The notes under the pieces: model-generated
What the model was told of the DNA's origin: nothing
What the model saw: the letters and a program-made list of their open reading frames with translations, nothing else
Database searches by the model: none
Position numbers and translations under genes: made by a program
Sequence record: OR424387.1
Strand: one strand, 5' to 3'
Source: Escherichia phage HEMP4
DNA: 39,891 nt
Shown here: positions 1,578 through 35,086 of the stretch, in pieces
How positions within the stretch are numbered: the stretch's first letter is position 1
Layout of the letters: each line of letters begins with the position of its first letter

Positions 1578-1842
1578 GCACATCCCTGTGCCGCCGCCGT
1601 CAGAAGAATCCTGCCTTGTCGTTGATGTACTCCGCGTGGGTCTGGATATCACGCAGGCATTTGCTCACACCGACGATGTAGCAGAACATGGTGGTCAGCT
1701 CCGCCGCCGCGCCCGATACGTCGTGCCCGTCTTCCTGTAACTGGTTCAGCAGATTCATCAGCAGTGAGTTCTCCGTCAGGCCGAGAACACCAGACGGAGA
1801 ATGAATCAGACTGCGGTAGCCGGGCTTCAGTGGGGCGCTGTA
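1578..1842. repeat. Internal direct repeat copy A (about 265 bp, about 96 percent identical to 33780..34045)
   Basis: Direct alignment by eye; covers 3-prime coding end and 3-prime UTR hairpin (GGCACA-nnnn-TGTGCC) of antirepressor-like gene. Confidence 0.85.
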
Positions 1843-2256
1843 TTCTTTTTTGTCTTCCAGCTTGATCGCCTCCATAATGGCGGGCATGAAGCCTGACAAG
1901 ACCTTCTCCACTTTTGTTTCTTGTTGTCTTAAACGTTTCTCGCATTCAATGAAGTAGCGTCGTACCTGACGACCTTTTTCGTTACGCTCGACCATTGCTA
2001 GTTCTTTGGCTGTATCGAGGGTGAGGTGGTACTCTTTGCGGTTGTGGCCGCCTCTACCAGATGTTTGCTTTCCCAAATTGGAAAGCAAAATATAGTCTTG
2101 ATTTTCAATGAATTCGTATTCTGAAATGCGATTTGTAATCCATGCTGCAAACACCTTTTTAACACCTAAAAAAGCGTGCAGATCGCGGGCATTGCAAAGT
2201 AGGGCTGTTTCGTTAGATATAGTGCCGTTGAATACGGGGATGAGTTGACTGGTCAT
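1600..2256 (-). CDS. Antirepressor-like protein, AntA-type N-terminal domain plus shared C-terminal domain
   Basis: ORF track 1600..2286; ATG at 2256 preceded by AGGAGG SD; N-terminal [12 protein letters not shown]...[14 protein letters not shown] resembles AntA/AntB antirepressor domain; C-terminal 80 aa identical to C-terminus of 33803..34513 and homologous to 34829..35086. Confidence 0.6.
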
Positions 2257-2580
2257 GATGACCTCCTTTGAAGTTTTAGTTAGCAATCACCAGTTAGTAG
2301 CTGGTGATCGGGTGTCAACTAGAGCCTTCAAAGACGCTCCGGGCATATTCCCCTTTTGGGTATTGTATTACGCCTCTCCACCCGACCTTTGTACGGATGT
2401 GACTATGCCAAATTGCAGGCATAAAAAAGCCGCAAAGCTATCGGGTGCGGGTGACCGCTTTGAAGTTCTAGTGCGGTCAGTATGCGATAGCTCTGGCGGC
2501 ATTGTCAAATCATGCGCCACTGAGTCCAGCAATCTCTGCAATACCAATAGCGAGATAATCGCGATTCGTCAGGCGTGATT

Positions 2581-2829
2581 TTATTGCATATGTCTTAGCT
2601 CCACTGAAGTTGTGATTTTATATGGGTTGCCTTTTACCTCAATAACACGATGAGGATCATTTTTTAGCTCTTCCGTAATCTTCCGTAATCTTCTAACAGC
2701 TGAACTTCGGTGTTTATAACGGTAAGTTACAGTTTCTTTTCTCTGCAATACCTCATCATTGCGGTACTTAGTCAAAACCATGACGACTTCAAACCTGACG
2801 CCGTTGTGTGCAACCATAATCTGCTTCAT
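2581..2829 (-). CDS. Hypothetical protein (82 aa)
   Basis: ORF in operon context; internal ATG start overlaps stop of upstream methylase gene (translational coupling); contains 10-bp tandem repeat 2671..2690. Confidence 0.4.
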   Translation of the reverse strand: MKQIMVAHNGVRFEVVMVLTKYRNDEVLQRKETVTYRYKHRSSAVRRLRKITEELKNDPHRVIEVKGNPYKITTSVELRHMQ

Positions 2830-3476
2830 GCTGCACGCTCCCGCCCCTGGTTGTCTGTTGGTGACACCGGAGCATTGCTGAATGCATTTGTTAATCCGCC
2901 AATATCCAACGCGTATCCAGGGTGTAGTTGCACTGCCGGGTCTTCGCACTGATTACCCCAAACATCGAAGCCATGAGACGTCTGGCGGGCGAACAGTTCA
3001 ATGCGAGAAACATCGCCTAACAATTGCACAAGTTTTTCACGAACGACATCTGGTTTTCTTGAATGCTCAAGCCGCGGTGCGGTAAATGACTGAACGATCC
3101 CTGCATTAATGCGTGGAGGTAGTTTTCCCTTTACTGCAAACAGGCAATCTTCACTATTGGCGCGAGTCATGTGTCCCATACCCATAACCAGTTTATCTGG
3201 TTGTCGACTACCACATTTTATCCACGTGAAGCCCTTCATGGTCATCAGACGGAATCCCCAGGCTTCAACAACTTTTAGCGCTTCGAGTGGTTGTGTTGGC
3301 ACCCACCACATGGCCAACAGACAGTTTTCATCGGCCAAATCCCACACAGGAAGGCGGCAGATATCCATCACACTCATAACCGGATATTTAAAACTGGCAC
3401 CGCGATTACCATCTGCGGCTTTGTCCCGGTATACCCAGGGTGGATCTGCATAGATTAGTGTGTATTTCTTAGTCAT
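2826..3476 (-). CDS. DNA N6-adenine methyltransferase, MT-A70-like
   Basis: Protein begins MTKKYTLIYADPPW with DPPW catalytic motif typical of MT-A70/N6-adenine MTases; no adjacent restriction endonuclease gene recognised. Confidence 0.8.
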   Translation of the reverse strand: MTKKYTLIYADPPWVYRDKAADGNRGASFKYPVMSVMDICRLPVWDLADENCLLAMWWVPTQPLEALKVVEAWGFRLMTMKGFTWIKCGSRQPDKLVMGMGHMTRANSEDCLFAVKGKLPPRINAGIVQSFTAPRLEHSRKPDVVREKLVQLLGDVSRIELFARQTSHGFDVWGNQCEDPAVQLHPGYALDIGGLTNAFSNAPVSPTDNQGRERAA

Positions 3477-3768
3477 AAACCACCCCACAACATCCTATGC
3501 CGCTATAGTCGCCACGGCGAAGGCCGTTACCTTTTGTGATACATTGGTCCCTGCGAACCGCGATCCTTGCACGCTCAACATCACCAGAAGCAACATCCAT
3601 ACACTGAAGCCAAAGGTGGGCGGCAATGCGGAACTGCCCTTTTTTCTCTCTTTCAATCGCGCGTTTTTCGATCTCTATTGCCGCAGGAGTAACGGCAACA
3701 ACCTTTGAAGGGCTGCGCATTGAAACCTTGTTCATGTGATATTTTTCAAGTCGGCTTAACTTTCTCAC
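3469..3768 (-). CDS. Hypothetical protein (99 aa)
   Basis: ORF in leftward operon, overlaps methylase start by 8 nt; GTG start with GAGGG upstream. Confidence 0.4.
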   Translation of the reverse strand: MRKLSRLEKYHMNKVSMRSPSKVVAVTPAAIEIEKRAIEREKKGQFRIAAHLWLQCMDVASGDVERARIAVRRDQCITKGNGLRRGDYSGIGCCGVVYD

Positions 3769-3877
3769 TTAATCCAACCCTCTCTGAAAATTAATGCCAG
3801 CAGATAAAGCCATGCTGAAACAGAGGCCAGGAATAAGTACCATCCTGACCATTTGCTCCAGTGCCTTAGCAGCACAC

Positions 3878-4126
3878 TCATGCAGCGTTGCTCACAGGAC
3901 GATATACACGTTGCTGAACAGGAGGCTTTTTACCCTGGAACTCTGCCGGGCTTGCTGCCTGACGTTCATCAAGCCAACGCTCAACTTCATCACGGTTCCA
4001 TGCGCAGCGTTTATCGGTGATATACCAGCGTTTAGGAAATTCCCCTGCGCGCTCCATACGGTCGATAGTGCTCCATGACAGTGGCACCACCGCCAGGAGT
4101 TCCTTCTTACCTAATGCACCTTTCAT
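3878..4126 (-). CDS. AlpA-family DNA-binding protein / putative excisionase
   Basis: 82 aa; KKELLAVVPLSWSTIDRMERAGEFPKRWYIT...WNRDEVERWL matches AlpA/Xis-like HTH pattern; GAGG SD 6 nt upstream of ATG. Confidence 0.7.
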   Translation of the reverse strand: MKGALGKKELLAVVPLSWSTIDRMERAGEFPKRWYITDKRCAWNRDEVERWLDERQAASPAEFQGKKPPVQQRVYRPVSNAA

Positions 4127-4175
4127 AAATACCTCTCTTGGTTGCAGTGCGGCGCGCGTGGCGCCGCGGTGGTGG

Positions 4176-5057
4176 TTACATAGATGTTTCGTTTAATTCT
4201 TCCCGACGAACGCTGTAAACGTCGGTGGCTTTTGCCAGCAGTTCGTCATCATCTGAAAGTTTTTGTGCAATGTATTTGTAAGCCTTATCCAGTTCGGAGA
4301 CAGTGCTGTAATTCATCGCTGCGCTGGTAAAGGCCATCAGCATTTCTTCTGGCTCACGGCTATCCGCTTTACGCGTTTGCTCATCAGGCTTTTTCACTGA
4401 TTTAGCGTTGATCAGACTGTTCATTCCCGCAGCCGTAGTCATTTGCGGAGTAATGTCTCGCTCAACGCGCGGTGCCGTTTCCTGTAATTCGTCAGGGGTG
4501 TAAACACCGAGAAGTACATCAGGAGCGTGCAGGCGAGCCCATCGTTTCGTGCAAAGATAGGCAAGTTGCTGGCGCGGATCCTGTTCCCACAATGGAGAGT
4601 TACGCACTCCTGCTTGCGCCATACTGATGGTAAGCTCACGTGGTTCTGCTTCTCCTTTAAGAACTGCTGACACAGTTACCGTCAGATTCGGTGATTTATC
4701 TGTTTTGCCGTTAACATTCGACCAGTCACCGCTCCAGCGATAATTCAGGCGTGTCGCCAGCAGGCTGGAAGAGGATACGACCGCGTTTACCAACTGTGCT
4801 TCGTAGCCTAACGTTCCGTTTACCACATGCGTTTTCTGCGCCACGGCGAAAGGGTTCATTCCCCACTGTGCCGCCTGCATGGTCACCGCCAGGCAATCGG
4901 CAGGTTTGCCTTCAAGATGTTTCGGTACAGTCGCTTTGCTTTGTGACATCAACTCCGCGAAACGCACCAGTTGATTCATGCCCTCGGGGCTGAAGATTGC
5001 CGCAGCAGTGCCTACAGTTGCGCCTGGTTGTGATGTGATTGCGATATCATTGCTCAT
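4176..5057 (-). CDS. RecT/Red-beta family single-strand annealing protein
   Basis: 293 aa; segment PLWEQDPRQQLAYLCTKRWARLHAPDVLLGVYTPDE resembles conserved region of lambda Bet; directly downstream of and overlapping exonuclease gene. Confidence 0.6.
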   Translation of the reverse strand: MSNDIAITSQPGATVGTAAAIFSPEGMNQLVRFAELMSQSKATVPKHLEGKPADCLAVTMQAAQWGMNPFAVAQKTHVVNGTLGYEAQLVNAVVSSSSLLATRLNYRWSGDWSNVNGKTDKSPNLTVTVSAVLKGEAEPRELTISMAQAGVRNSPLWEQDPRQQLAYLCTKRWARLHAPDVLLGVYTPDELQETAPRVERDITPQMTTAAGMNSLINAKSVKKPDEQTRKADSREPEEMLMAFTSAAMNYSTVSELDKAYKYIAQKLSDDDELLAKATDVYSVRREELNETSM

Positions 5058-5875
5058 ACGTACATATCCTGTTTACGTGCCCAGTCAGGGCGTTTAATAA
5101 TTTCCACTCCGCCCCATTCATCGTTGATGCGGCATTCGTGATAGGTATTCAGATCCCGGCGGAACAGAGCGTGCCCGGCATCGACATCCGGCGCATCCAG
5201 CTCGAACACGCGTACCGGATACCGACCACAATCAATGCTTTCGCTCACGGCAAGAAAGAAAAAACCATGTGGCTGACCAGTAACCCTCATTGCGCCTTCG
5301 CGGTACATTGCGTCCTGCACGTGGTAGCGGAACTCCTCGATGTGGCGTGCAAAACGGTCCATATCTGTAACCTTTTTCACGTCGACGATCACGTTGTGCT
5401 CTTTCAGCCATTTGTCTGGACGAATGCGGCACAACTCACCAGTCTCTTCATCGTTCCAGTACATTGATGCTTCGCAGTAACCAGGTGCTTCCAGCATCCA
5501 GCGTGCCGCCGGGTGAGCCATTGCGCTATCACGCATCAGCTCCAGTTTCCGCCACTGCTCGGCATCAAGTACCGTAATCCCCATATCCGCCACATCACGA
5601 AGAAATGCCTCTTCGTCAGCTTTACCTTGTTTCGTCCGACGATCGAATTTCGGCGAAACAATGAAGCGTTTGTCGAACTCTCCAGGCTCCAGAAGCAGAT
5701 AGTGCAATGCGGTTCCCATATCCAGTGCAGACTTTTTCTCTTCGTCTTCTGGTGCTGCCTGAACCCATTTAAGAAGCGCCGGATTCTTGGCAACCATGTC
5801 CAGTTGCGACTTACTCACGCCGTCCCCGGCGTGGTAGTCTTCGTTGCTGATGTCGAAATAAATTCCCGGCTTCAT
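5054..5875 (-). CDS. RecE-like exonuclease (PD-(D/E)XK, exodeoxyribonuclease VIII type)
   Basis: 273 aa starting MKPGIYFDISNEDYHAGDGVSKSQLD, characteristic of phage exonuclease VIII-like proteins; paired with annealing protein. Confidence 0.75.
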   Translation of the reverse strand: MKPGIYFDISNEDYHAGDGVSKSQLDMVAKNPALLKWVQAAPEDEEKKSALDMGTALHYLLLEPGEFDKRFIVSPKFDRRTKQGKADEEAFLRDVADMGITVLDAEQWRKLELMRDSAMAHPAARWMLEAPGYCEASMYWNDEETGELCRIRPDKWLKEHNVIVDVKKVTDMDRFARHIEEFRYHVQDAMYREGAMRVTGQPHGFFFLAVSESIDCGRYPVRVFELDAPDVDAGHALFRRDLNTYHECRINDEWGGVEIIKRPDWARKQDMYV

Positions 5876-6171
5876 GCCGCGTCCCTCTGCCCATCAAGCT
5901 GATCAGCCAGATCCCAGCGGGCGATAATTGCCATTGCCTCGCGCCGGTAGGAATCCATCAGTTCTTCGAACTCAGGGCTGTCTTTAGCTGCTTCCAGCAC
6001 TTCCTGGCGAACTCCTTTGCCTGTTACAACGTCGAAAGTTGAGGCCAGTTGATGAAGCCGGATGCTCTCAATCAGTTCAACTTGTCGGTCATATAGCTGT
6101 TCTGACAGGCGGTAGTCCTTGTCGAATGCCAGCATGATTTTTTGAAGATTTTTCTGCTGATTAACGTTCAT
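5872..6171 (-). CDS. Hypothetical early protein (99 aa)
   Basis: ORF 5872..6186 with internal ATG at 6171 (MNVNQQ...); overlaps exonuclease start. Confidence 0.5.
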   Translation of the reverse strand: MNVNQQKNLQKIMLAFDKDYRLSEQLYDRQVELIESIRLHQLASTFDVVTGKGVRQEVLEAAKDSPEFEELMDSYRREAMAIIARWDLADQLDGQRDAA

Positions 6172-6173
6172 TA

Positions 6174-6326
6174 TCAGCCCTCCCATATCTCGTTATCGTT
6201 GGCCACATCGCGAGCTTCTTTGCTGACGAAAGCCCACTTAATACCTTCCTGTAAGGTGCGGAACTTCCAGCTCATGAATCCGCATGCAGTAACGCAGTAC
6301 CAACCGTTGATGATTTTCCACTGCAT
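6174..6326 (-). CDS. Small hypothetical protein (50 aa), first gene of leftward operon
   Basis: Hand-translated MQWKIINGWYCVTACGFMSWKFRTLQEGIKWAFVSKEARDVANDNEIWEG; GAGG SD upstream; below ORF-track length cutoff. Confidence 0.3.
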   Translation of the reverse strand: MQWKIINGWYCVTACGFMSWKFRTLQEGIKWAFVSKEARDVANDNEIWEG

Positions 6327-6345
6327 AACTTGTTACCTCGGTTTG

Positions 6346-6360
6346 TTACCGTTGAGGTAA
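6346..6360. promoter_or_regulatory. Operator-like palindrome TTACC-N5-GGTAA (left operator region, site 1)
   Basis: ttaccgttgaggtaa, perfect inverted repeat, intergenic upstream of leftward operon. Confidence 0.55.
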
Positions 6361-6407
6361 TGATTATGCGTATTTGGTTTGGTGTCAATAGATATGAGTT
6401 AAAAAAA

Positions 6408-6422
6408 TTACCCACAAGGTAA
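6408..6422. promoter_or_regulatory. Operator-like palindrome TTACC-N5-GGTAA (left operator region, site 2)
   Basis: ttacccacaaggtaa, perfect; 62 bp from site 1. Confidence 0.55.
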
Positions 6423-6479
6423 TCTTGCTGGCAATAAAAAAGCCGCCATGAGGCGGCTTACTTGCTGAAAACTATAGTT

Positions 6480-7064
6480 TTATTGTTTGCTTTTTTCGTT
6501 CTGGTTGATGACAAATTCAATGTAACTTTCGATCTTTGCTTTCTCGGTTTCGGGTAACAATGCGTAGCGCGAGCGGTCATAGTTGATAGTCGCAGGGTCG
6601 TGCGGGTGAATCAGTAATTCATAGCCGTGACGCCCGAATGCGGATGCAACATTCTCCAGGGTGGAAATGGAAACGCTGACCTCATTGTTTAACAGGCGGC
6701 TGATTGTCACCTGGGCGACGCCGGATGCGCGGTGAAGTTTTCCCTGTGTTGAAAGGTCGCGGCTTTCGCTCATCCAGCGTTCCAGGTTGTGAGCCGCCAG
6801 CTGACCAATGTCGCTTGGGCCGACAGGCTGAAAACCTTCCTGAGAAAGCGAGCGATCGATATCAAGCCAGTTACGGGGTTTATTGGCGGCAGCTTCAATT
6901 TTTCGCGCAACCTGGTCGCCGATAACCTTCTTACCAAGAGCCCAGCGGTTTACCAGATTTGCCTGAGTTCCAAGTTTTTCTGCCATCCGCGTCTGAACAC
7001 CATTGAATTCACGGTCGATCAAGTCGTTGAGATTTTGCCTGCGGACGTCCTGGATACTTTTCAT
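6480..7064 (-). CDS. Putative prophage repressor (HTH, no recognisable S24 peptidase domain)
   Basis: 194 aa, divergent from Cro-like gene with operator cluster between; N-terminal HTH-like segment TRMAEKLGTQANLVNRWALGKK; no Ala-Gly/Ser-Lys autocleavage module seen; no SD upstream of ATG. Confidence 0.55.
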   Translation of the reverse strand: MKSIQDVRRQNLNDLIDREFNGVQTRMAEKLGTQANLVNRWALGKKVIGDQVARKIEAAANKPRNWLDIDRSLSQEGFQPVGPSDIGQLAAHNLERWMSESRDLSTQGKLHRASGVAQVTISRLLNNEVSVSISTLENVASAFGRHGYELLIHPHDPATINYDRSRYALLPETEKAKIESYIEFVINQNEKSKQ

Positions 7065-7119
7065 TTTCTGGAAAATCGCCTCATATATGAATCAGTAGAT
7101 GATTCAATTTAAAGCAATA

Positions 7120-7182
7120 TTACCCAACAGGTAAATGCACCCCATAGGTAACTATCCTTGATTTTTGTTACCTTATGGGTGA
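7120..7182. promoter_or_regulatory. Right operator cluster: three TTACC-N5-GGTAA-type sites (7120..7134 perfect, 7137..7151 8/10, 7168..7182 9/10)
   Basis: ttacccaacaggtaa, gcaccccataggtaa, ttaccttatgggtga within the 154-bp divergent intergenic region. Confidence 0.6.
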
Positions 7183-7218
7183 ATATTTATTATCTGAAAT
7201 AAATATCAGGCAATAGCT

Positions 7219-7449
7219 ATGAGCGATAACGGACATTTCGATTTCAAAAAGCACTGGCTTGCACTTACTCCGGATGAGCGTGAAGCCTTCGCACAGGAAG
7301 CCGGAACGACGAGTCACTATATACAGACTCACTTAACAGGTAAGCGCAAAATGCCAGGTAAGGTATTGATGAATGGGCTTTTTAAAGCCTGTAAAACAAG
7401 ACAATGGCTGCGCTCAAAAGCAGAACTGGCATACTTCTTCTACTCATGA
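7219..7449 (+). CDS. Cro-like / YdaS-type HTH regulator
   Basis: 76 aa, divergent from repressor; LTPDEREAFAQEAGTTSHYIQTHL HTH-like segment. Confidence 0.6.
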   Translation: MSDNGHFDFKKHWLALTPDEREAFAQEAGTTSHYIQTHLTGKRKMPGKVLMNGLFKACKTRQWLRSKAELAYFFYS

Positions 7450-7472
7450 TATCCAGCCACAACCCTCTGTAG

Positions 7473-7494
7473 ACCGCCACCCGGCGGTCTTTTC
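7473..7494 (+). terminator. Rho-independent terminator after cro-like gene
   Basis: GACCGCC-accc-GGCGGTC followed by TTTT. Confidence 0.65.
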
Positions 7495-7597
7495 ATATCT
7501 ATTCGTACCTCAAAGGTAATAAAAAACCAAATCTGGTTGATCAAATTTTCCAATTGTGCAAAATAGCCAATATCAATAACAAAAAGGGGCGGAAAAA

Positions 7598-7810
7598 TTG
7601 AAGATAGTAACCAGAATGGAGGCCGCAAAAGCCGGGTTAAATCGCTATTTCACAGGAAAGCGGTGCCGTCACGGCCATCTCTCTGAAAGGTATGTTCTGA
7701 ACGGAACATGTGTTGAATGTGCAATGAATAGCGCCAACCGCTATCGTAATGAATTTGCTTGTGCACTAAAGAGTGCAAGAGGGGAAACCTATGGCAAGCA
7801 GCTGGATTAA
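7598..7810 (+). CDS. Small Cys/His-rich protein, possible zinc-binding regulator
   Basis: 70 aa, TTG start with AGGGGCGG upstream; CRHGH...CVEC motif; function not recognised. Confidence 0.4.
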   Translation: MKIVTRMEAAKAGLNRYFTGKRCRHGHLSERYVLNGTCVECAMNSANRYRNEFACALKSARGETYGKQLD

Positions 7811-8621
7811 GGTTGAAGTTATCACTCCTGATAAACCTGAAATTTTTCAGATAGCAGAAATTCTGGGTATTGATCCAGATGCTGTTCTTGGAAAGCTGGT
7901 TCGTATATGGGCATGGGCTGACCAGCAAACAATAGACGGTAACGCTGGCAGCGTTACAAAAGGAGTACTTGATAGACTCGCTTTTATTACAGGATTTGCT
8001 GACGCCCTCATTAGCGTCGGATGGCTTGCTTATCATGACGGCAAACTAATTCTTCCAAACTTTGAGCGACACAATGGAGAATCATCGAAAAAACGTGCAC
8101 TTACGAATAGAAGAGTGGCAGAGCATCGAAAACGAGTAACGCAAAAAGTAACGCCAACAGCGTTACAAAAGGAGTTACCAGAGGAAGAGGAAGAGGAAGA
8201 TATATATAAAACCCCACACATAGCGCACGTGCGCGAGGGTGCTCCGACCAGTGAAGCGAACAGTACGCCGTTGCAGGTGGCAGAACCTGAATTTCTGGAT
8301 GGCCTGAGTGAACCCATCGGGAAATTTCCGATGACAGATGGCTGGCTACCGTCGCCAGATTTTCGGCGGCGTGCTGCGCTGTGGGGAACGGCCCTGCCGG
8401 AACCGGAATTTACACCTGCTGAACTTGCTGCATTCCGGGATTACTGGATGGCTGAGGGCAAAGTGTTCACGCAGGTTCAGTGGGAACAAAAATTCGCCAG
8501 GCACGTAAATCATATCAGGGGAAAATCAAAAAATGCCGGGAAAAGCGATGAGCTTGACTGGAATAACACTGACTGGATAGAAGGGGTGTGGGATGAAATC
8601 AACTCCAGAACTTCTCAATGA
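7791..8621 (+). CDS. Replication initiation protein (O-like position, DnaT-like C-terminal region)
   Basis: ATG at 7791 with AAGAGGGG SD; occupies O position upstream of P-like gene; contains iteron-like DNA repeats; C-terminal AELAAFRDYWMAEGKVFTQVQWEQKFARHV resembles DnaT-like domain. Confidence 0.55.
   Translation: MASSWIKVEVITPDKPEIFQIAEILGIDPDAVLGKLVRIWAWADQQTIDGNAGSVTKGVLDRLAFITGFADALISVGWLAYHDGKLILPNFERHNGESSKKRALTNRRVAEHRKRVTQKVTPTALQKELPEEEEEEDIYKTPHIAHVREGAPTSEANSTPLQVAEPEFLDGLSEPIGKFPMTDGWLPSPDFRRRAALWGTALPEPEFTPAELAAFRDYWMAEGKVFTQVQWEQKFARHVNHIRGKSKNAGKSDELDWNNTDWIEGVWDEINSRTSQ
7939..7966. repeat. Iteron-like element 1 (GTAACGCTGGCAGCGTTACAAAAGGAGT)
   Basis: 28-bp sequence with internal inverted repeat AACGCTG/CAGCGTT; repeated at 8148..8175 in a different reading frame. 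Confidence 0.5.
8148..8175. repeat. Iteron-like element 2 (GTAACGCCAACAGCGTTACAAAAGGAGT), followed by (GAGGAA)x3 and AT-rich tract
   Basis: Near-identical to 7939..7966; extra AGTAACGC half-site at 8135..8142; (gaggaa)3 at 8181..8198 then tatatataaaa. Confidence 0.5.
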
Positions 8622-9369: not shown

Positions 9370-9406
9370 TACCAGCGCGATAGCGCATTTTTTTACGCCT
9401 ACATGA

Positions 9407-9421
9407 TTACCTGTTGGGTAA
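9407..9421. promoter_or_regulatory. Operator-like palindrome TTACC-N5-GGTAA
   Basis: ttacctgttgggtaa, perfect, intergenic. Confidence 0.5.
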
Positions 9422-9468
9422 CAAAATGTTCTAATCTCTATTGATTTCATGTCTTATGTGGTTTTTAA

Positions 9469-9483: not shown

Positions 9484-9486
9484 ATC

Positions 9487-9831: not shown

Positions 9832-9892
9832 AGCGACGATCTTTTTAGTTATCAATGTAATCAATAAGTTATGTGGATAAGCGAGGGTAAAG

Positions 9893-15820: not shown

Positions 15821-15897
15821 TGGCGCGGCATGCAGGATTCGAACCTGCGACCAACCGCTTAGAAGGCGGTTGCTCTGTCCAACTGAGCTAATGCCAC
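15821..15897 (-). tRNA. tRNA-Arg (anticodon UCU)
   Basis: Reverse complement folds as cloverleaf: acceptor GTGGCAT/ATGCCGC (one G-U), D-arm GCTC-AGTTGGACA-GAGC, anticodon stem ACCGC/GCGGT with loop CTTCTAA (anticodon TCT), T-arm GCAGG-TTCGAAT-CCTGC, discriminator G, CCA end; 77 nt. Confidence 0.85.
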
Positions 15898-28024: not shown

Positions 28025-29823
28025 GTTACTTTGGCCTTAATCCAGTAAACCAGAATCAGCAGCTTGACGAAGCAGCATCAAATCCAGCTGGCTTTAACAG
28101 CGATGTTGGTTTTTTCGACAATGCTGTAGGAGCGGCATTGTCTGGTTTGTACTCCGGGCTGGTGGCAAAGCCAGATCAGTTGCTATGGGCAGGGATGGAT
28201 AAAATCGTATCCCCGATTGCTCAGTTTGTTAACGAAAACACCTCGCTCAATGATACTTCAGTTTCATACATTGCCGAGCAGAGAAAACTAGCAGAGCAGC
28301 AGGTTAAGCGGCTGACGCCTGATGCCGCGACAACCGGAACCGCTGGGCAGGTTCTTTATGGGTTGTTCGATATGGGCGGGCAGGCTGTTGTCGGTACAAC
28401 GCTCGGTGGTCCTGTCGGAGGTGCAGCGGCGGTAACTTCGCTACAGGGTTTTTCTGAGTTTGAACGGCTGACAGCACAGGGTGTTGATTTCAGGACGGCG
28501 CAGGAAGCGGGATTAGTGCAGGGCATTACTGCTGGTGCCGGAACGCTGATCCCTATGAGCCTCGGGTTACGTGCTGGTGGTGCGCTGGCGGAAGGTGTGG
28601 CGGCTCAGCTTGCGCGGACGGGTGAGAGTTCAGTGCGACGCGCCGCAGCAACAGCAGTACGTGCAACGCCAGATATTGCCTATGCCGCAGGTACAAATAT
28701 TGCGTTCGGTATGGCACAGCGTGGGCTTACTGCAAAAACACTTCGTGATGGTGGCTATAGCGAAATGGCTAACCAGTATGATGTGTTGGATCGACAGGCA
28801 ATTGCTATTGATGCTGTTCTTGGGGTGGCGTTTGGTGGTGTCGGCAGATTTATTAACTCTCGCGGCGAGTCTACAAACGCACCAAATTTTTCACCAGTTG
28901 ATATCGATGCTGCACTGGCGGCGAATGCCGCTCATCATGCTGAAATTGATATTGCGCCCGGCGTGCCGATCAACGTGCTTTCGCGCAATTCTCACATTCA
29001 GGCTCTGCGAAAAGCTATGTCTGATGTTAGCCAGGGGAGACCTGTAGACGTTGCCAGCATTGTTGAGTCTGCATCTTTCAGTGAAATTCCTGGGCGCAAG
29101 AGTCTGCTGTCTCAGGCAGTTAATGAGGCTCTGTCATCTGTAGATGATGGAGTAACGGCGCGCGCTATAGAAAATCGGTTGCTTGAAGAACAGGCCGCGC
29201 AGCTTTTGCCGCGTGGAGATAGACAGGTTTACCAGTCTGAAATCGCTAATAGCCAACGAATTATTGAAAATCTCACTGAACAGCGTGCACAAATTCTTGC
29301 AGAAGAGCCAACCGGTAGCGGTAAAGCTTTGTCTCGTGCTCGATCAGATAAACAGGCCAGACTTCGCGATATTGATCAACGAATCCGGCAGGCACAAGAA
29401 CGCCTGGAATTTTCCCGTAACGCGTTGGCACCGCACGAGCCTGGCGGTCAGTTTTTTGAAGCTCGAGCAGAACTGGCTCGGAGACAGCAGGCAGAAAGTG
29501 AACTTAATGCTCAGGCTGTTTCATTCTATAAAACAGCAGAGGTCAGGACGCCAGACGAAGTAGCTCCTTTTGAGCCTGATAAAATATTGCAACAGGCAGA
29601 ACAAAAAATGATGTCAGATCAGGCAGGAGATATTGATCTGCGCATAGCTGAAGACTCGCTGCTTGAATCACCTGACATGATAATCACCGTGCTGGATGAT
29701 GATGGTAATCCACAATCGCGCAGTGCGCGTGAAGTACTGGATGAAGCGAACAGGGAAAGTGAGCAGGCAATACAGGATTCCAGCCTGTTTGATGTTGCTG
29801 TGGCGTGTTTCTTGAGAGGTTAA
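28021..29823 (+). CDS. Large internal virion / ejection protein (600 aa)
   Basis: Overlapping start/stop with neighbours; Ala/Gly-rich. Confidence 0.5.
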   Translation: MSYFGLNPVNQNQQLDEAASNPAGFNSDVGFFDNAVGAALSGLYSGLVAKPDQLLWAGMDKIVSPIAQFVNENTSLNDTSVSYIAEQRKLAEQQVKRLTPDAATTGTAGQVLYGLFDMGGQAVVGTTLGGPVGGAAAVTSLQGFSEFERLTAQGVDFRTAQEAGLVQGITAGAGTLIPMSLGLRAGGALAEGVAAQLARTGESSVRRAAATAVRATPDIAYAAGTNIAFGMAQRGLTAKTLRDGGYSEMANQYDVLDRQAIAIDAVLGVAFGGVGRFINSRGESTNAPNFSPVDIDAALAANAAHHAEIDIAPGVPINVLSRNSHIQALRKAMSDVSQGRPVDVASIVESASFSEIPGRKSLLSQAVNEALSSVDDGVTARAIENRLLEEQAAQLLPRGDRQVYQSEIANSQRIIENLTEQRAQILAEEPTGSGKALSRARSDKQARLRDIDQRIRQAQERLEFSRNALAPHEPGGQFFEARAELARRQQAESELNAQAVSFYKTAEVRTPDEVAPFEPDKILQQAEQKMMSDQAGDIDLRIAEDSLLESPDMIITVLDDDGNPQSRSAREVLDEANRESEQAIQDSSLFDVAVACFLRG

Positions 29824-29828
29824 ATTAA

Positions 29829-32303
29829 ATGAGACAGGAATGTATACAAGCGGTCCAGCAGGCGGCGCAGCGCACGTTAACGGCGCGAGAAATACAGAAC
29901 ATTGAAGACCGCATTTATCGAAATATGCGCTCCATTGCTCGTGATGACCCGATGTCGTGGCGACAACTTTCCGAATCAGAACGGTTGTATCGTGCAGCAC
30001 AATTGGCATCTGAAGAATTACAGCGAGAAGCGGCATTAAAGAAACGTCGTGTGGCCCTCACTATAGCCGCACGTCAGAGATTGGATAAATTTATCAATAG
30101 CTATCAAGGGGCTGATGGGAAACTTGGCGCTCTTAACCGTACTATTGCTTTTAATGCAGACGGTAAATCGAATTTCCTCTCTGTTGAATCCAGAACAAAA
30201 GCCACCCGTGATTATGCATTGAGTCAATTGCAGGAGGCATTCGAAGCAGTTGATCCTCGCTTTTTTGGTCTGTTTGAAGATGAAGCGGGCGTACGTGACC
30301 TGATATATGAAATGCGGGGGCAAAATACTGGCAATGCTAAAGCAAGAAAAGGTGCTAAGGCGTGGAGAGAAGTTACAGAGCTGCTGCGCCGCCGGTTTAA
30401 TGATGCTGGTGGGGACATTGGCTATCTCGAAAACTGGGGGATCCCTCAACATCATTCTATGGAAAAGGTTGGGGCGGTATCAAAAGATAAATGGGTTAGC
30501 GATGTTATAGGTAAGCTGGATCGCAAATATTATACCCGAGCCGATGGACAACTGATGAACGATGCCGAGTTGTCTGCATTTCTTGGAGAGGCTTATAACA
30601 CGATCGCTACTGGTGGGCTGAATAAGCTTACTGATACCGGAATGCGAATTTCCGGCGCACGTGCTAACCGTGGTAATGCATCACGACAGATACATTTCAA
30701 AGATGCAGATTCCTATCTGCAATATCAGCAACTTTATGGCGATCGCTCTCTATGGGAAATCATGGTCGGTCACCTGGAAGGTATCAGTAAAGATATTGCA
30801 CTGGTGGAAACATATGGTCCAAACCCCGATCATGTTTTCCGCTCTCTTCTTGATCAGGTGAAGGCAGAAACGGCAACAGCTAACCCGAGTAAAACCGGTA
30901 AAGTCGAGCGGCTGGCGAACAACACAGAGAATCTGTACAACTTTATTTCCGGAAAGACACAGCCTGTAGCGAATCCGCACATCGCGCGATGGTCTGACAA
31001 TATCCGCAACTGGCTGGTTGCCAGCAGACTCGGATCCGCGTTGCTGTCATCGTTCTCTGATCTTGGAACCATGTATCTGTCTGCGAAGGTTACCAACCTT
31101 CCAATGAACCAGTTATTCCGCAACCAGCTTGAAGCTATGGACCCAACGAACCGTACAGAACTTGCGCGGGCGCGCCGCGCTGGTCTGGCGATGGAATCTC
31201 TACTTGGCAGCGTTAACCGCTGGGCGATGGATAATATGGGGCCGTCTGTGTCTCGTTGGGCTGCAACGGCGGTAATGCGTGCCAGTGGGCTTACAGCATG
31301 GTCAGATGCGCACAAGCGCGCCTATGGCGTAACCATGATGGGAAGCCTGGGAGAAGTAGTGTCACGGACACCAGACCTTCGTCGCCTCGATGACTCTGAT
31401 TTTCGTATCCTGAAAAGCAAAGGGATTACTGACACAGACTGGAGCGTATGGAAGTTGGCGCAACAGGAGGACTGGGGGAACGGTAATAATACGATGCTGA
31501 CACCGGAAAGCATTATGCGTATCCCTGATTCAGCAGTTAAACATCTTGGTGAGCCTGAACGCGTGAAATTTGAGGCAATGCGTAAACTGCTCGGTGCCGT
31601 AACTGAAGAAGTTGATATGGCTGTTATTACACCGGGAGCACGTGAGCAACTGATAACCGGTTCTGGTATTCAGCGTGGAACATGGAAAGGTGAATTAACG
31701 AGAAGTGTTTTCCTGTTTAAATCGTTCCCTATCTCGGTTGTTATGCGTCACTGGTCACGCGCTATGGGTATGCCGTCTGCTGGTGGGCGTGCGGCATATA
31801 TTGCGACGTTTATTGCCAGTACGACCATTCTTGGCGCTTTGTCGCAACAACTTAACGACCTTGCGTCTGGTCGTAATCCTCGAGAGATGACAGGAGAAGA
31901 TGCTGCTAAATTTTGGCTTGGTGCTCTACTGAAAGGTGGTGGTCTTGGCCTTTACGGTGACTTTTTATTGTCAGATCACACTAGGTACGGGAGCGGCGCG
32001 CTGGCGTCGATGCTTGGCCCGGTAGCTGGTCTGGTTGATGACGTAGTGAAGATAGCTCAGGGCATACCGCTAAATGCTGTGGAAGGGAAGAGTGAGCAGA
32101 CTGGTGGTGATCTGGTGAAGCTGGGGAAAGGTTTGATGCCAGGTGCGAATCTCTGGTACTTGAAGGCGGCTCTCGATCACATGATCTTTAATCAGATGCA
32201 GGAGTATTTTTCACCAGGCTATTTGCGTAAAATGGAGCAACGTTCGAAGAAAGAGTTTAACCAGACATACTGGTGGCGACCTCAGGATGTCACTCCGCAA
32301 TAA
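29829..32303 (+). CDS. Large internal virion / ejection protein (824 aa)
   Basis: Large ORF completing structural operon. Confidence 0.5.
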   Translation: MRQECIQAVQQAAQRTLTAREIQNIEDRIYRNMRSIARDDPMSWRQLSESERLYRAAQLASEELQREAALKKRRVALTIAARQRLDKFINSYQGADGKLGALNRTIAFNADGKSNFLSVESRTKATRDYALSQLQEAFEAVDPRFFGLFEDEAGVRDLIYEMRGQNTGNAKARKGAKAWREVTELLRRRFNDAGGDIGYLENWGIPQHHSMEKVGAVSKDKWVSDVIGKLDRKYYTRADGQLMNDAELSAFLGEAYNTIATGGLNKLTDTGMRISGARANRGNASRQIHFKDADSYLQYQQLYGDRSLWEIMVGHLEGISKDIALVETYGPNPDHVFRSLLDQVKAETATANPSKTGKVERLANNTENLYNFISGKTQPVANPHIARWSDNIRNWLVASRLGSALLSSFSDLGTMYLSAKVTNLPMNQLFRNQLEAMDPTNRTELARARRAGLAMESLLGSVNRWAMDNMGPSVSRWAATAVMRASGLTAWSDAHKRAYGVTMMGSLGEVVSRTPDLRRLDDSDFRILKSKGITDTDWSVWKLAQQEDWGNGNNTMLTPESIMRIPDSAVKHLGEPERVKFEAMRKLLGAVTEEVDMAVITPGAREQLITGSGIQRGTWKGELTRSVFLFKSFPISVVMRHWSRAMGMPSAGGRAAYIATFIASTTILGALSQQLNDLASGRNPREMTGEDAAKFWLGALLKGGGLGLYGDFLLSDHTRYGSGALASMLGPVAGLVDDVVKIAQGIPLNAVEGKSEQTGGDLVKLGKGLMPGANLWYLKAALDHMIFNQMQEYFSPGYLRKMEQRSKKEFNQTYWWRPQDVTPQ

Positions 32304-32312
32304 GGAAGTGTT

Positions 32313-32486
32313 GTGTTTTTAATTATTTTGAGTGTGATAATTTCTGGTGGATTGTTATTTATTGACCGCTACAAATATTTTCTTAACCCTCAGACTCAAG
32401 CTATTTGCTGGTTCATCTTTGTTGTGCAGGGAGTAGTTCTTGTTGCAAGCCTTATTGAGGGGAGGCCTCTTATTTTTACTGGGTAA
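32313..32486 (+). CDS. Small hydrophobic protein (57 aa), putative membrane protein
   Basis: Hand-translated from GTG 32313 (AAGGA SD 6 nt upstream): MFLIILSVIISGGLLFIDRYKYFLNPQTQAICWFIFVVQGVVLVASLIEGRPLIFTG; below ORF-track cutoff. Confidence 0.3.
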   Translation: MFLIILSVIISGGLLFIDRYKYFLNPQTQAICWFIFVVQGVVLVASLIEGRPLIFTG

Positions 32487-32498
32487 ATAGGTGACTAC

Positions 32499-32795
32499 AT
32501 GCAAGCTATAGGATTCATTGTTTATATCGTCGTTGGTCTTTTTCAGTTGGCAGCAATTATGGCTGGGCTTGAATCATGGTGGGGATTGCACTGGATAATT
32601 GCAGCCCCCATTGCTTTCATCGTGAGCTATATTCCATTTGTTGGAGCGATTGTTGGTATGGTTGGCGCTGTGGATGTATGGCGGTGGGAGTGGTGGCAGG
32701 CTGGCCTTCTCTTCTTTGGTGGGATCATCTTTGCTATTGTCTGCGGTGGAATGTCATCATTTTTCGAATGGCTATCATTCAGAAAAGGGACGTGA
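32499..32795 (+). CDS. Small integral membrane protein (98 aa, about 3 TM segments)
   Basis: Highly hydrophobic; AGGTGA SD; stop codon inside GTGACATGTCAC palindrome, then terminator. Confidence 0.5.
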   Translation: MQAIGFIVYIVVGLFQLAAIMAGLESWWGLHWIIAAPIAFIVSYIPFVGAIVGMVGAVDVWRWEWWQAGLLFFGGIIFAIVCGGMSSFFEWLSFRKGT

Positions 32796-32803
32796 CATGT
32801 CAC
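32792..32803. promoter_or_regulatory. Palindrome GTGACATGTCAC, copy 3
   Basis: Perfect 12-bp palindrome overlapping TGA stop, directly followed by terminator. Confidence 0.5.
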
Positions 32804-32804
32804 A

Positions 32805-32828
32805 GGCCGCTTTCGCGGCCTTGTTTTT
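32805..32828 (+). terminator. Rho-independent terminator
   Basis: GGCCGC-tttc-GCGGCC followed by TTGTTTTT. Confidence 0.7.
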
Positions 32829-33054
32829 AACGAATGCCACCGCCGCCCGGGCGGGAATCCGCAGAACGCCCACCGCAGCGGGAGCCGTCAGCGGCAGTGT
32901 CGCTGTCGTGCTGACAACGACCGGCAAAGGCCTGAGTTGAAGCTACCAGAGACAACAAAACGAACAGTGCAGCAAATGCTTTTTTCATTGTGAAATTTCC
33001 ATCTATAAGCCACCTCAATGTGGCGTCAATGAGTGTAGCACTGACTTTTGTTTC

Positions 33055-33083
33055 GTCCACAAAAAAGCCCGCAGCGCGGGCTA
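33055..33083 (-). terminator. Rho-independent terminator for moron cassette
   Basis: On minus strand TAG-CCCGC-gct-GCGGGC followed by TTTTTT; stop codon embedded in stem. Confidence 0.7.
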
Positions 33084-33521
33084 TTCTTCTTCATCATTAA
33101 AAAGCGGATTGTTGTTTCCATCTGATGAAAGGAAAGGTATGTGTTCTCTTGAAAATCCAACAATGACAATTTCATTATCATTTTTTGCATAATGAATGCA
33201 TTCATTAGAATGCCTTCCGCTAGGGTTGAAATTTAAGTTAATGGTATAATTCTTAAATGTGTTTGGATACCATGTTGGCCCACAATGATAATGCCAATAA
33301 TTCTCTTGCTCATAATTGTCTGAGCCGGGAATTTTATCATGGTTATCATCAACCCATGAGGGCTTGTTTTTTCCAACAAGCGCCCTTCCATTGGCAACAT
33401 CCTCTAAAAAACTTTGTATGATTTTTATTTCATCATCAGTAAGGAAAGGTCCGTCTACAGCGAAAGGGGTGTTGCTTTCCCCATGTAGAAAACTATTAGA
33501 TATTCTAATGTTAAACTTCAA
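33081..33521 (-). CDS. Hypothetical moron protein B (146 aa), AT-rich, acidic C-terminus, probable TTG start
   Basis: ORF track 33081..33662; no in-frame ATG after upstream gene stop; TTG at 33521 sits 7 nt after AGGAG; Asn/Asp/Glu-rich with HYHCGP and C-terminal NDEEE. Confidence 0.5.
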   Translation of the reverse strand: MKFNIRISNSFLHGESNTPFAVDGPFLTDDEIKIIQSFLEDVANGRALVGKNKPSWVDDNHDKIPGSDNYEQENYWHYHCGPTWYPNTFKNYTINLNFNPSGRHSNECIHYAKNDNEIVIVGFSREHIPFLSSDGNNNPLFNDEEE

Positions 33522-33541
33522 GGAAAACTCCTGATGTGCTT

Positions 33542-33709
33542 CTATTTGGAGCGAAATGCCGCCTTGAAGTCGCTGAAAGATGTTCCTGTCTGGTAAACCA
33601 TATCCTTGTCGCGCTCTTTGCTTGCGCGGCCAAGCATAACTTTTCCAATGACATCCCAGCATTGCTTGGCTTGTTCATTGTGCTGAGTACGATTTTTCAA
33701 CGCTGTCAT
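33542..33709 (-). CDS. Hypothetical small moron protein A (55 aa)
   Basis: Hand-translated MTALKNRTQHNEQAKQCWDVIGKVMLGRASKERDKDMVYQTGTSFSDFKAAFRSK; GGAGG SD 6 nt upstream; operator-like site just upstream. Confidence 0.4.
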   Translation of the reverse strand: MTALKNRTQHNEQAKQCWDVIGKVMLGRASKERDKDMVYQTGTSFSDFKAAFRSK

Positions 33710-33721
33710 ATCGCGCCTCCT

Positions 33722-33736
33722 TTACCTTTAAGGTAA
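33722..33736. promoter_or_regulatory. Operator-like palindrome TTACC-N5-GGTAA upstream of moron cassette
   Basis: ttacctttaaggtaa, perfect, followed by TATTAC. Confidence 0.5.
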
Positions 33737-33779
33737 TATTACGCGAATCTACATCACATCGCCAATGATTATTTTAAAG

Positions 33780-34045
33780 GCACATCCCTGTGCCGCCGCC
33801 CGTCAGAAGAACCCAGCCTTGTCGTTGATGTACTCCGCGTGGGTCTGGATATCACGCAGGCATTTGCTCACACCGACGATGTAGCAGAACATGGTGGTCA
33901 GCTCCGCCGCCGCGCCCGATACGTCGTGCCCGTCTTCCTGTAACTGGTTCAGCAGATTCATCAGCAGTGAGTTCTCCGTCAGGCCGAGAACACCAGACGG
34001 CGAATGAATCAGGCTACGGTAGCCGGGCTTCAGTGGGGCACTGTA
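33780..34045. repeat. Internal direct repeat copy B (matches 1578..1842)
   Basis: Same as copy A. Confidence 0.85.
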
Positions 34046-34513
34046 GGTTTTGTTCTCTATCTTCATCGCCTGCATTACTGCTGACGCCGTGGCGTTGGCT
34101 ACCTGGTCGGCAACCATCTTTATGCGTTCTTCCTGCGGGAGCGAGTTTTTAATGTAACTTCCGGTGCGGCGGATCTGAGGAAGAACCTCACCTGTAACCC
34201 ATTTACGAAAGCGGTAGGGGATAGTGCCTGGTGTCACTGCGTCGCGGCAGCGGAGGATCAGTGTGTAGAGGCCTGACTCGGAGATGATGTTGATCTCTTT
34301 TACTCGGCTGTCAAAAATTGCACGATGTTCATGCCCTATGTTGAACATAGACCTTTCATCATCATCCAGTTTTTCAAGTGCTTGGGTGACGTTTTGGATG
34401 CGCAGCGCACTACAAACGTCTTGGGCTACAAACCATGGTTGGCCATCGATAATGATGGAACGGATAGGGTTAACAGATTCAAATTTGAAGATGGCAGTTT
34501 GAGCATTAGCCAT
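33803..34513 (-). CDS. Bro-N domain antirepressor-like protein with shared C-terminal domain
   Basis: ATG at 34513 (ORF track GTG 34528); N-terminal AIFKFESVNPIRSIIIDGQPWFVAQDVCSAL is classic Bro-N; C-terminal 80 aa identical to C-terminus of 1600..2256 gene. Confidence 0.75.
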   Translation of the reverse strand: MANAQTAIFKFESVNPIRSIIIDGQPWFVAQDVCSALRIQNVTQALEKLDDDERSMFNIGHEHRAIFDSRVKEINIISESGLYTLILRCRDAVTPGTIPYRFRKWVTGEVLPQIRRTGSYIKNSLPQEERIKMVADQVANATASAVMQAMKIENKTYSAPLKPGYRSLIHSPSGVLGLTENSLLMNLLNQLQEDGHDVSGAAAELTTMFCYIVGVSKCLRDIQTHAEYINDKAGFF

Positions 34514-34667
34514 GGTGGTTATCTCCACTTAGTGATTTTAATCACCACCGCAACGCCAATTACTGGTGGTGAACTGGACAAGGTTGGCGTACCGGCCTAA
34601 GTGGTACCGGCGTCCTTTCGGACCCCTGCCCAGCCCACCATAATTCGGATATAGCTGTGCTTAACGC

Positions 34668-34780
34668 ATAAAAAAACCACGTCTGGCGTGGTATGCGCCA
34701 CTTAGTAACTCGGGACGCCAATCCCGGCACTGGATTTTGCCAGTGCCTGATTACTATGGCACAAGAGGAGTGCGATGTAA
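34668..34780 (-). ncRNA. Candidate structured small RNA or leader upstream of Bro-N gene
   Basis: Minus-strand noncoding segment with stem-loops GGCACTGG-caaaat-CCAGTGCC and CGGGA-ttggcg-TCCCG, ending in terminator ACCACG-ccaga-CGTGGT plus U7; begins just downstream of operator-like site. Confidence 0.3.
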
Positions 34781-34782
34781 AT

Positions 34783-34797
34783 TTACCGCAAAGGTAA
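34783..34797. promoter_or_regulatory. Operator-like palindrome TTACC-N5-GGTAA
   Basis: ttaccgcaaaggtaa, perfect. Confidence 0.5.
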
Positions 34798-34828
34798 ATA
34801 TAAGCACTCCACTTGGTAATTGCAAACC

Positions 34829-35086
34829 TTATCTGGTTTGCTTTCGTAATTGTTCGGCACAATAGTCGAGATGTGTTTGCAGATCCCGCATAGACATCTG
34901 TGAGCTGGTGACGTAGTTAATCAGTGCAGTCAGTTCGGCAAGTGGGCCATCGACATTAAATCCATCCTTATCGAGATCCCGGAGTAATTTCATCAAGTGC
35001 GATCCCTCCACCAGTGACCTGACGCCTCCCGGCGTGTGAATCCTTTCGGTAAATCCGTCTTCCAGTGGATAGTGATACTGCTGCAT
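34829..35086 (-). CDS. Small antirepressor-like protein (85 aa), free-standing homolog of the shared C-terminal domain; LexA box upstream
   Basis: ATG 35086 with GGAGAA SD (ORF track TTG 35104); IHTPGGVRSLVEGSHLMKLL...DGPLAELTALINYVTSSQMSMRDLQTHLDY aligns with [20 protein letters not shown]...[30 protein letters not shown] of the two larger proteins. Confidence 0.6.
   Translation of the reverse strand: MQQYHYPLEDGFTERIHTPGGVRSLVEGSHLMKLLRDLDKDGFNVDGPLAELTALINYVTSSQMSMRDLQTHLDYCAEQLRKQTR

Follow-up and report, generated by a model that had tools for sequence, protein, structure and literature searches.

A stretch of 39,891 nucleotides (nt) from Escherichia phage HEMP4 (sequence record OR424387.1; hereafter the window) encodes, all on the minus strand, three proteins that share a domain of about 80 residues. 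Two of them are composite antirepressors: an AntA/Ant protein of 218 amino acids (aa) at 1600..2256 (ATG at 2256, stop codon 1600..1602), in which the Pfam AntA head (PF08346; E 4.5e-26, 91.7 bits against a threshold of 27) occupies residues 32-102, and a Bro-N/Ant protein of 236 aa at 33803..34513 (ATG at 34513, stop codon 33803..33805), in which the Bro-N head (PF02498; E 1e-19, 71.4 bits against a threshold of 25.6) occupies residues 22-117. The third is the product of a free-standing antirepressor gene, ant, of 85 aa (34829..35086). The initial annotation had placed the three open reading frames (ORFs) here and had claimed that the two fused proteins are identical over their C-terminal 80 or so residues, and both statements are borne out. 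The final 80 residues, ending ...DKAGFF and encoded by 1603..1842 and 33806..34045, are the same in each, and 237 of 243 nt match in the tail DNA, with six differences that are all synonymous (0 nonsynonymous). This identity is sharply confined, stopping at most 3 nt past the stop codon at one end and some 243 nt before it at the other. Its abrupt borders and synonymous-only differences mark the shared tail, at the level of sequence, as a cassette under purifying selection and no chance likeness. The further claim that the 85-aa protein is homologous across the same span also stands: it shares about 40% identity with the fused tail along the entire common stretch (tblastn: 43% across 72 aa), free and fused subfamilies share 23 conserved positions, and all three proteins match phrog_450 (E 4e-36 to 4e-48), a group labelled 'unknown function'. 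As a separate matter, the two tail-coding segments constitute 97.5% identical direct repeats on one strand, some 32 kb apart in a single prophage; homologous recombination between them could remove or divide the greater part of the genome, and gene conversion may homogenise them. Production of a tail-only protein from an internal start, as with Ant1/Ant2 of P1, was considered and rejected, the internal ATGs having no Shine-Dalgarno sequence at a usable distance.

The free-standing gene provides the most direct route to the identity of the domain. When the 85-aa protein was compared with the PDB by phmmer, chain E of entry 5D50, 'Anti-repressor protein', was the sole sequence matched (E 1.4e-46), and by tblastn the protein is 86.7% identical to Ant of Salmonella phage SPC32H, whose gene likewise sits between virion genes and the tail-fibre gene. 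A LexA (SOS) box, TACTGTATATTTATACAGT (35105..35125), lies in the ant promoter region; its core, CTGTATAAATATACAG (35108..35123), is placed 21 nt upstream of the ant ATG and is the sole AT-rich one among the three exact matches to CTGT-N8-ACAG in the window. The LexA link that had been proposed for the stand-alone copy thus rests on a perfect box, which is kept upstream of ant in five relatives (phiV10, ZX5, TL-2011b, phiv142-3 and SPC32H). A stand-alone size of about 86 aa together with a LexA-box promoter is displayed by 34829..35086 and by neither fused gene (218 and 236 aa), and no LexA-like box was found near either of the latter with one mismatch allowed. By these sequence features the free-standing gene is the ortholog of SPC32H ant, an antirepressor of understood mechanism, and the two fused genes share the Ant domain, yet are no orthologs of ant. 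One relative departs from this arrangement: in TUM13064 an element with an ISEc53 transposase (L012 5229..6449) stands directly upstream of ant, and since the insertion leaves no LexA box there, SOS control of ant may have been lost or rewired in that E. coli strain.

The SPC32H Rep-Ant-LexA switch is reportedly the subject of Kim & Ryu 2013 (J Virol) and Kim et al. 2016 (PNAS), with PDB entries 5D50 and 5D4Z. In that phage, SOS-induced Ant inactivates the repressor through protein-protein contact (PMC7380047); Ant, a homotetramer (PMC9638917), makes this contact through the tetramerisation domain at the C-terminus of Rep (PMC9986798), and Rep is thereby released from DNA (PMC9638917, PMC9986798). 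The counterpart of this repressor is present in the window as a lysogeny repressor of 194 aa (Rep; 6480..7064, minus strand) that matches chain A of 5D50, 'Repressor', over its full length (phmmer, E 3.5e-42). It shares 99.5% identity with the repressor that ZX5, phiV10 and their relatives encode and 43% with SPC32H Rep, and is the presumed target of all three Ant-domain proteins. Because the 85-aa protein is about 87% identical to SPC32H Ant, for which the complex is solved, and a Rep homolog lies in the same window, searches with this protein lead to a characterised family with the function that had been proposed and not to an unrelated one. The setting is likewise that of SPC32H and its kin. 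The attachment (att) core sequence ATTGAGTGGGAATGATT, reported for phiV10, epsilon15 and ZX5 (PMC9782041), occurs twice, as attL at 111..127 (plus strand) and as attR at 39875..39891, so that the window holds a complete guaA-integrated prophage of about 39.8 kb that belongs to the genus Uetakevirus (epsilon15/phiV10/SPC32H-like).

The fused tails lead to the same structure when taken by themselves. Compared with the PDB, the tail alone matched 5D50_E over 75 residues (E 3.4e-14). Fold comparison was based on a monomer AlphaFold2 (AF2) model of the tail alone (predicted local distance difference test, pLDDT, 77), a full-length AntA/Ant model (pLDDT 51) having been set aside as unusable. Prediction for the isolated domain, one of the checks suggested at the outset, placed 5D50_G and 5D50_H at the top of a Foldseek search of the PDB (probability 1.0; target-normalised template modelling scores of 0.64-0.72); these were the only credible matches, those that followed having E values above 9. 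The repeated domain is the antirepressor Ant fold of Salmonella phage SPC32H, solved in complex with its repressor, and the predicted structure places the fused tails within that fold. The domain had been regarded as one without a name, which holds for Pfam and NCBIfam, where the last 100 or so residues of either fused protein found no match, but not for structure, the fold having been solved and published (PDB 5D50).

The main feature of the AF2 monomer is a single long helix at the C-terminus, of a kind typical for assembly elements, and it lends some weight to an alternative in which the Ant-like tail is an oligomerisation (tetramerisation) module only, the heads doing the work on DNA or another protein and the tail making no contact with Rep. 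Bro-N, AntA, ORF6N and Rha families are generally taken as DNA-binding or regulatory heads, which agrees with such a division of labor, as does the homotetrameric state of Ant itself. We nevertheless consider this alternative unlikely, in part because the 23 positions common to free Ant and the tails exceed the needs of a bare coiled coil, and in part from the distribution of heads and the phenotype taken up below.

The family so defined is narrow and under-annotated. A profile search of 1.84 billion representative proteins returned 62 matches only, and those examined were either enterobacterial Ant-type proteins or spurious repeat proteins; the long repeat proteins P0052 and P0066 were dismissed as compositional artefacts. 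From 5.8 billion sequences, a further search recovered 275 clusters, most of whose members are 85-86 aa in length; the named clusters are all from Enterobacterales, except for one entry labelled Staphylococcus aureus, and most clusters carry the NCBI annotation 'hypothetical protein'. A remote relative is found in Shiga toxin (Stx) phages, where the tail of AntB has 5D50_E as its top PDB match (E 0.003; hhalign probability 93%), the example being antB1 of Stx phage P13374 (L009 1182..1820), the C-terminal region of which is remotely homologous to the Ant domain. No SPC32H-type Rep homolog was found in the Stx phages with AntB. Since a remote tail is carried by phages of this kind, the Ant fold may be used against other repressors as well; its retention there is also what a purely oligomeric tail would predict.

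Both fused genes are preceded by leaders rich in RNA elements, which the initial annotation, correct as to LexA for the stand-alone copy, had overlooked. Ahead of the Bro-N/Ant gene, and on the same minus strand, a sigma-70-like promoter for an isrK-C4-antirepressor transcript (34797..34826; TTGCAA-17-TATATT, a consensus match only) is followed by an isrK-like RNA (34670..34746; Rfam RF01394, 67 bits against a gathering score of 50) that has its own terminator (34692..34676, then a T run), and by a C4-type antisense RNA (34562..34645; RF01695, 66 bits against a gathering score of 45). The C4 RNA exposes two loops, b' (CCACUUAG, 34597..34604) and a' (ACGCCAA, 34584..34590), whose complements, CUAAGUGG (b) and UUGGCGU (a), each occur twice: within isrK (a1, 34715..34721; b1, 34698..34705) and within the leader (a2, 34553..34559; b2, 34525..34532), where b2 overlaps the Shine-Dalgarno GGAG of the Bro-N/Ant gene. 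By Rfam, a C4 RNA is also situated upstream of, and co-oriented with, an antirepressor gene in ZX5, TL-2011b, phiv142-3 and TUM13064. Alignment of six related phages (window 34500..34760 with L001 (phiV10), L002, L008, L010 and L012 (TUM13064)) distinguishes three classes of b site (CUAAGUGG, CUAAAAGG and CUAGUAGG) and two of a site (UUGGCGU and UUGGUCU), and in every class the C4 loop, the upstream target and the downstream target change in step. These classes differ among otherwise near-identical E. coli Uetakevirus prophages, in a manner resembling the immI heteroimmunity of P1 and P7. The RNA elements and their covarying complementarity are present as described; by analogy with P1/P7 and with isrK-anrP of Gifsy-1, the C4-type RNA should block translation of the antirepressor in the lysogen, because a copy of its target site covers the ribosome-binding site. 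A TTG-initiated ORF of 20 codons (34519..34581, minus strand) ends 5 nt before the Bro-N/Ant ATG, and at the equivalent place in ZX5 a 37-aa 'ash family protein' is annotated; the ORF may be a coupled leader peptide comparable to Gifsy-1 orf45 or P1 icd, or may have no meaning at all.

The leader of the AntA/Ant gene has an outline like that of the C4 leader, with an RNA that scores as sRNA-Xcc1 (2298..2387, minus strand; RF02221, 62.9 bits against a gathering score of 53) and not as C4. The sRNA-Xcc1 family of Rfam is named after an integron small RNA (sRNA) of Xanthomonas. The minus-strand element at 2400..2508, in which a promoter-like site (TTGACA-18-CATACT, 2508..2479) is followed by a hairpin and a terminator before the sRNA, is the counterpart of the isrK element. 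Within the sRNA, CUUUGAAG (2326..2333, minus strand) is complementary to CUUCAAAG, which is found both over the Shine-Dalgarno sequence (2266..2273) and in the upstream hairpin (2458..2465); the duplicated stretch of 8-10 nt at these two places, AACUUCAAAG, pairs with CUUUGAAG of the sRNA, and the leader duplex has a z score of -3.7 against shuffled sequences. The RNA may be a functional analogue or relative of C4. From the -35 hexamer on, this leader shares 98% identity with its antB1 counterpart in Stx phage P13374, the sole relative compared, where sRNA-Xcc1 is also scored (L009 1862..1951), and the AntA head is near-identical to the Stx-phage antB head. The int-adjacent AntA/Ant gene is in this way a three-part mosaic of Stx antB1 promoter and leader, Stx antB-type AntA head and Uetakevirus tail. 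It is missing from ZX5 and TL-2011b, and the whole arrangement occurs in 23 E. coli genomes; NCBI names for near-identical proteins are 'antA/AntB antirepressor family protein' or 'phage antirepressor Ant'.

The distribution of the domain follows one group of phages. Within a phage collection it was found in 33 records, all Uetakevirus-like, every one of which (33/33) also holds a Rep homolog. Members from Salmonella, including SPC32H, have the free ant only, and those from E. coli, Enterobacter and Klebsiella have ant with a fused copy directly downstream. The 243-nt tail (at least 94% identity) is present in 469 of 5426 complete E. coli genomes and the Rep gene in 537 of them; the tail-bearing genes are annotated variously as AntA-type, BRO-N and ORF6N, and in all four of the genomes sampled the tail lies inside a guaA prophage with the same Rep. 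At the locus downstream of ant, the head is Bro-N in the window, ZX5, TL-2011b and phiV10, AntA in phiv142-3 and SCU-101, and ORF6N in TUM13064. A constant tail joined to at least three unrelated heads, at one locus and in prophages that share this Rep, makes better sense with the phage-specific function residing in the tail than with a tail for assembly alone. More divergent tails occur in Rha and ORF6N fusions from metagenomes, and free-standing chimeras of Ant type and tail type also exist (P0098, for example). One metagenomic Rha/Ant fusion of 319 aa, P0030, has a predicted N-terminal extension, RYANLVQLTTRQLALPVV, that resembles the translation of the window C4 region, RYANLVQFTTSNW; because of this resemblance, Rha-headed fusions probably also lie behind a C4-type leader, the P0030 gene call being over-extended.

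Free and fused forms are about 39-43% identical within each of the E. coli, Enterobacter and Klebsiella lineages, and this steady value near 40% in three host lineages suggests distinct, non-redundant roles. It could be accommodated if the fused copies were trans-acting antirepressors directed against the non-cognate Rep of co-resident or superinfecting relatives, with the resident Rep left to the LexA-controlled Ant. Salmonella offers a precedent, in which trans-acting antirepressors hit non-cognate repressors and one of them is without LexA control (PMC3121763), and the variation of C4 specificity classes among near-identical phages is of the sort expected for a second immunity determinant. 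On the other hand, the tail is nearly invariant (at least 94% at the nucleotide level) wherever this type of Rep occurs in E. coli, and a fusion from ZX5 acted on its own phage, which together make a purely non-cognate role improbable.

The ZX5 fusion is the nearest to functional evidence for the composite proteins. Its ORF4 has a Bro-N head and is 81% identical overall to the window Bro-N/Ant protein, identical from residue 76 to the end, with a tail that is 100% identical. When ORF4 was overexpressed, lysogens fell about 1000-fold, from 1e9 to 1e6, and rep transcripts dropped by 75% (PMC9782041). An antirepressor phenotype of the fusion is not readily expected of a tail confined to oligomerisation, and it likewise speaks against a lack of function. 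The latter idea, that the fused genes are functionless, decaying by-products of mosaic recombination, draws on two observations. In phiV10 the Bro-N fusion (L001 3012..3691) is annotated as a 194-aa protein and a 29-aa ORF, and tblastn recovers the tail in two pieces, indicating a frameshift inside the Ant-like tail; and in Klebsiella and Raoultella elements truncated 3' remnants occur. The remnants came to light through the 95-aa proteins P0006 and P0009, which had been candidates for a second stand-alone lineage on P4-like satellites by alpA and were rejected as such: the upstream DNA encodes the Bro-N fusion linker GRYVRDELSPADKAQKVVASF in frame, which identifies them as 3' remnants of truncated fusion genes. 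Set against general decay are the synonymous-only divergence of the paralogous tails, the intact ORFs in hundreds of genomes and the regulatory RNAs kept with compensatory changes, and we regard it as a highly improbable account of the fused genes. The element that bears such a remnant in Klebsiella and Raoultella chromosomes (L003-L006, about 5900..6288) is itself conserved, with alpA, a T7 gp14-like core protein, SSB and a DUF927 primase, its 95-aa ORF being the 3' remnant of a truncated Bro-N/Ant fusion; it may be either a degraded prophage or a satellite.

Overall, these findings are probably best explained by an SPC32H-type switch in which the repeated domain is the Ant fold and serves, in the composite antirepressors, as a Rep-binding tail under C4-type control. 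Rep (6480..7064) would maintain lysogeny and LexA would keep the 85-aa Ant off, until DNA damage leads to synthesis of Ant and inactivation of Rep, as shown for the ortholog. In the fused proteins an Ant module would stand at the C-terminus behind exchangeable heads (Bro-N and AntA here, ORF6N and Rha elsewhere), and this tail, as the putative Rep-binding part, would tetramerise and bind the C-terminal domain of Rep in the manner of Ant, the heads being exchangeable accessories. Each composite gene would be expressed from a promoter followed by a short terminated RNA with decoy target sites, then a C4-type antisense RNA, then a second copy of the target over the ribosome-binding site. The initial annotation took the domain for the effector or the repressor-binding module in an antirepressor set with several members, a reading supported in these terms by homology to SPC32H Ant, the presence of Rep in the window and the ZX5 phenotype, with Rep binding by the fused copies inferred.

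Several observations weigh against so direct an extrapolation. The fused tail is merely about 40% identical to the resident Ant, and the divergence of Ant and tail relative to Rep is untidy: over four lineages SPC32H departs from the trend of co-divergence, its Ant being 87% identical and its Rep 43%. Co-occurrence of the domain with Rep is largely shared ancestry inside one phage family, and the Stx phages keep an AntB without an SPC32H-type Rep. The ZX5 assay employed a glutathione S-transferase fusion at 500-1500-fold overexpression with both domains together, in a paper that mentions neither SPC32H nor the small ant gene (PMC9782041). Finally, the frameshifted tail of phiV10 implies that at least one phage is viable without an intact fused gene.

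A more elaborate circuit on the same fold can be envisaged, although we hold it to be speculative and, as a joint claim, rather doubtful. No terminator-like site was found between the ant stop codon and isrK, so that the ant transcript would also carry the isrK decoys a1 and b1. LexA cleavage in the SOS response would then switch on the minimal Ant and, in the same transcript, supply decoys that titrate C4 and release translation of the composite Bro-N/Ant protein, whose tail would attack the same tetramerisation domain of Rep or form mixed tetramers with free Ant. This would amount to a two-stage, feed-forward antirepression circuit, with tails as repressor-specific warheads and heads as interchangeable chassis; in its general form, specificity for the repressor would come from the C-terminal module in 'antirepressors' headed by Bro-N, AntA, ORF6N or Rha.

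Other features of the prophage lie apart from this system. A tRNA gene (15824..15897, minus strand; 69 bits) is located amid early and packaging genes, and a tRNA-Arg is annotated in related prophages. Directly downstream of the Bro-N/Ant gene is an ORF of 193 aa (33081..33662, minus strand) with no match in Pfam or PADLOC, at about the position where relatives have a YafO-family toxin gene. PADLOC defence models and NCBIfam gave no matches.

Thousands of prophages have annotated composite 'antirepressors' with a Bro-N, AntA, ORF6N or Rha head, and to our knowledge the part of them that contacts the repressor is generally not established. In the searchable literature we found no paper linking the SPC32H Ant fold with the tails of Bro-N, AntA or ORF6N antirepressors. 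The connection made here is that a widespread Bro-N, AntA and ORF6N set, present in about 9% of complete E. coli genomes, has the SPC32H Ant fold as its tail, and that one phage holds this fold under both LexA and antisense-RNA control. The main value of the homology to a solved antirepressor-repressor complex is a directly testable model of where in a composite antirepressor the contact with the repressor lies: it predicts that the tail binds the tetramerisation domain of Rep and that the tail alone induces the prophage, and the occurrence of at least three heads on one tail constitutes a natural experiment. The placement of one fold under LexA and under C4-type antisense RNA, the latter in several specificity classes, bears on how SOS induction is joined with secondary immunity. 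Current understanding is not overturned, the switch being the published one of SPC32H. The Rep-Ant-LexA switch, composite antirepressors and C4-type control are all of already known kinds, and our findings are a modest extension of a known system.

Among those kinds, the SPC32H switch is one of the closest. It shares with the window the phage genus, the position of ant and its LexA box, an Ant that is about 87% identical, a full-length homolog of Rep and the fold found in the fused tails; it differs in having no isrK, C4 or composite antirepressor, and in a Rep that is 43% identical to that of the window. The same logic recurs in other LexA-controlled small antirepressors, Tum of 186, GfoA/GfhA/GftA of Gifsy and AntC of N15, where a repressor that cannot be cleaved is inactivated by a small protein made in the SOS response, from a gene at a distance from the immunity region (PMC3121763, PMC7380047). 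No sequence relationship of Ant to Tum, GfoA/GfhA/GftA or AntC was detected; of the 62 matches of the profile search, those examined were enterobacterial Ant-type proteins or spurious repeat proteins.

For the composite proteins the comparison lies elsewhere. Iyer, Koonin & Aravind (2002) are said to have described Bro-N, KilA-N, AntA and Rha phage regulators as built through domain shuffling. Like P22 Ant and the AntA/AntB proteins of Stx phages, the window proteins join a head of the Bro-N/AntA/ORF6N/Rha type at the N-terminus to a variable C-terminal module, and the int-proximal gene has its promoter, leader (98%) and near-identical AntA head in common with Stx-phage antB1; their C-terminal module, however, is the SPC32H Ant fold and not KilA-C/ANT or P22_AR_C. 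A paper on 'ant' of phi24B (PMC3064807) was discarded as a source, as it concerns a different, P22-like Ant.

The leaders have two precedents. In immI of P1 and P7 the layout is a1b1 - c4 - a2b2 - icd - ant, to which the seqA-CI-seqC system of P4 is related, and C4 specificity differs between P1 and P7 by a few compensating bases. The window resembles immI in placing a C4-family RNA upstream of an antirepressor gene, in duplicating the targets of two C4 loops with the downstream copy over the ribosome-binding site, and in specificity classes that differ by a few compensating bases. It is unlike immI in that the C-terminal part of the antirepressor is unrelated to P1 Ant and the upstream copy of the targets is part of a terminated RNA of isrK type. 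This last feature recalls the isrK-orf45-anrP module of Gifsy-1 (Hershko-Shalev et al. 2016, PMC4825925), in which a predicted antirepressor gene is expressed from the isrK promoter and RNA pairing controls its translation, and IsrK given in trans activates translation via a coupled upstream ORF (PMC4825925). Both have an isrK with its own terminator, leaky in Gifsy-1, then a structured region and a predicted antirepressor gene; Gifsy-1 IsrK pairs with the downstream leader, and the Rfam isrK model matches the window. The window departs from the Gifsy-1 module in its upstream ORF, which has merely 20 codons, a TTG start and an end 5 nt before the Bro-N ATG.

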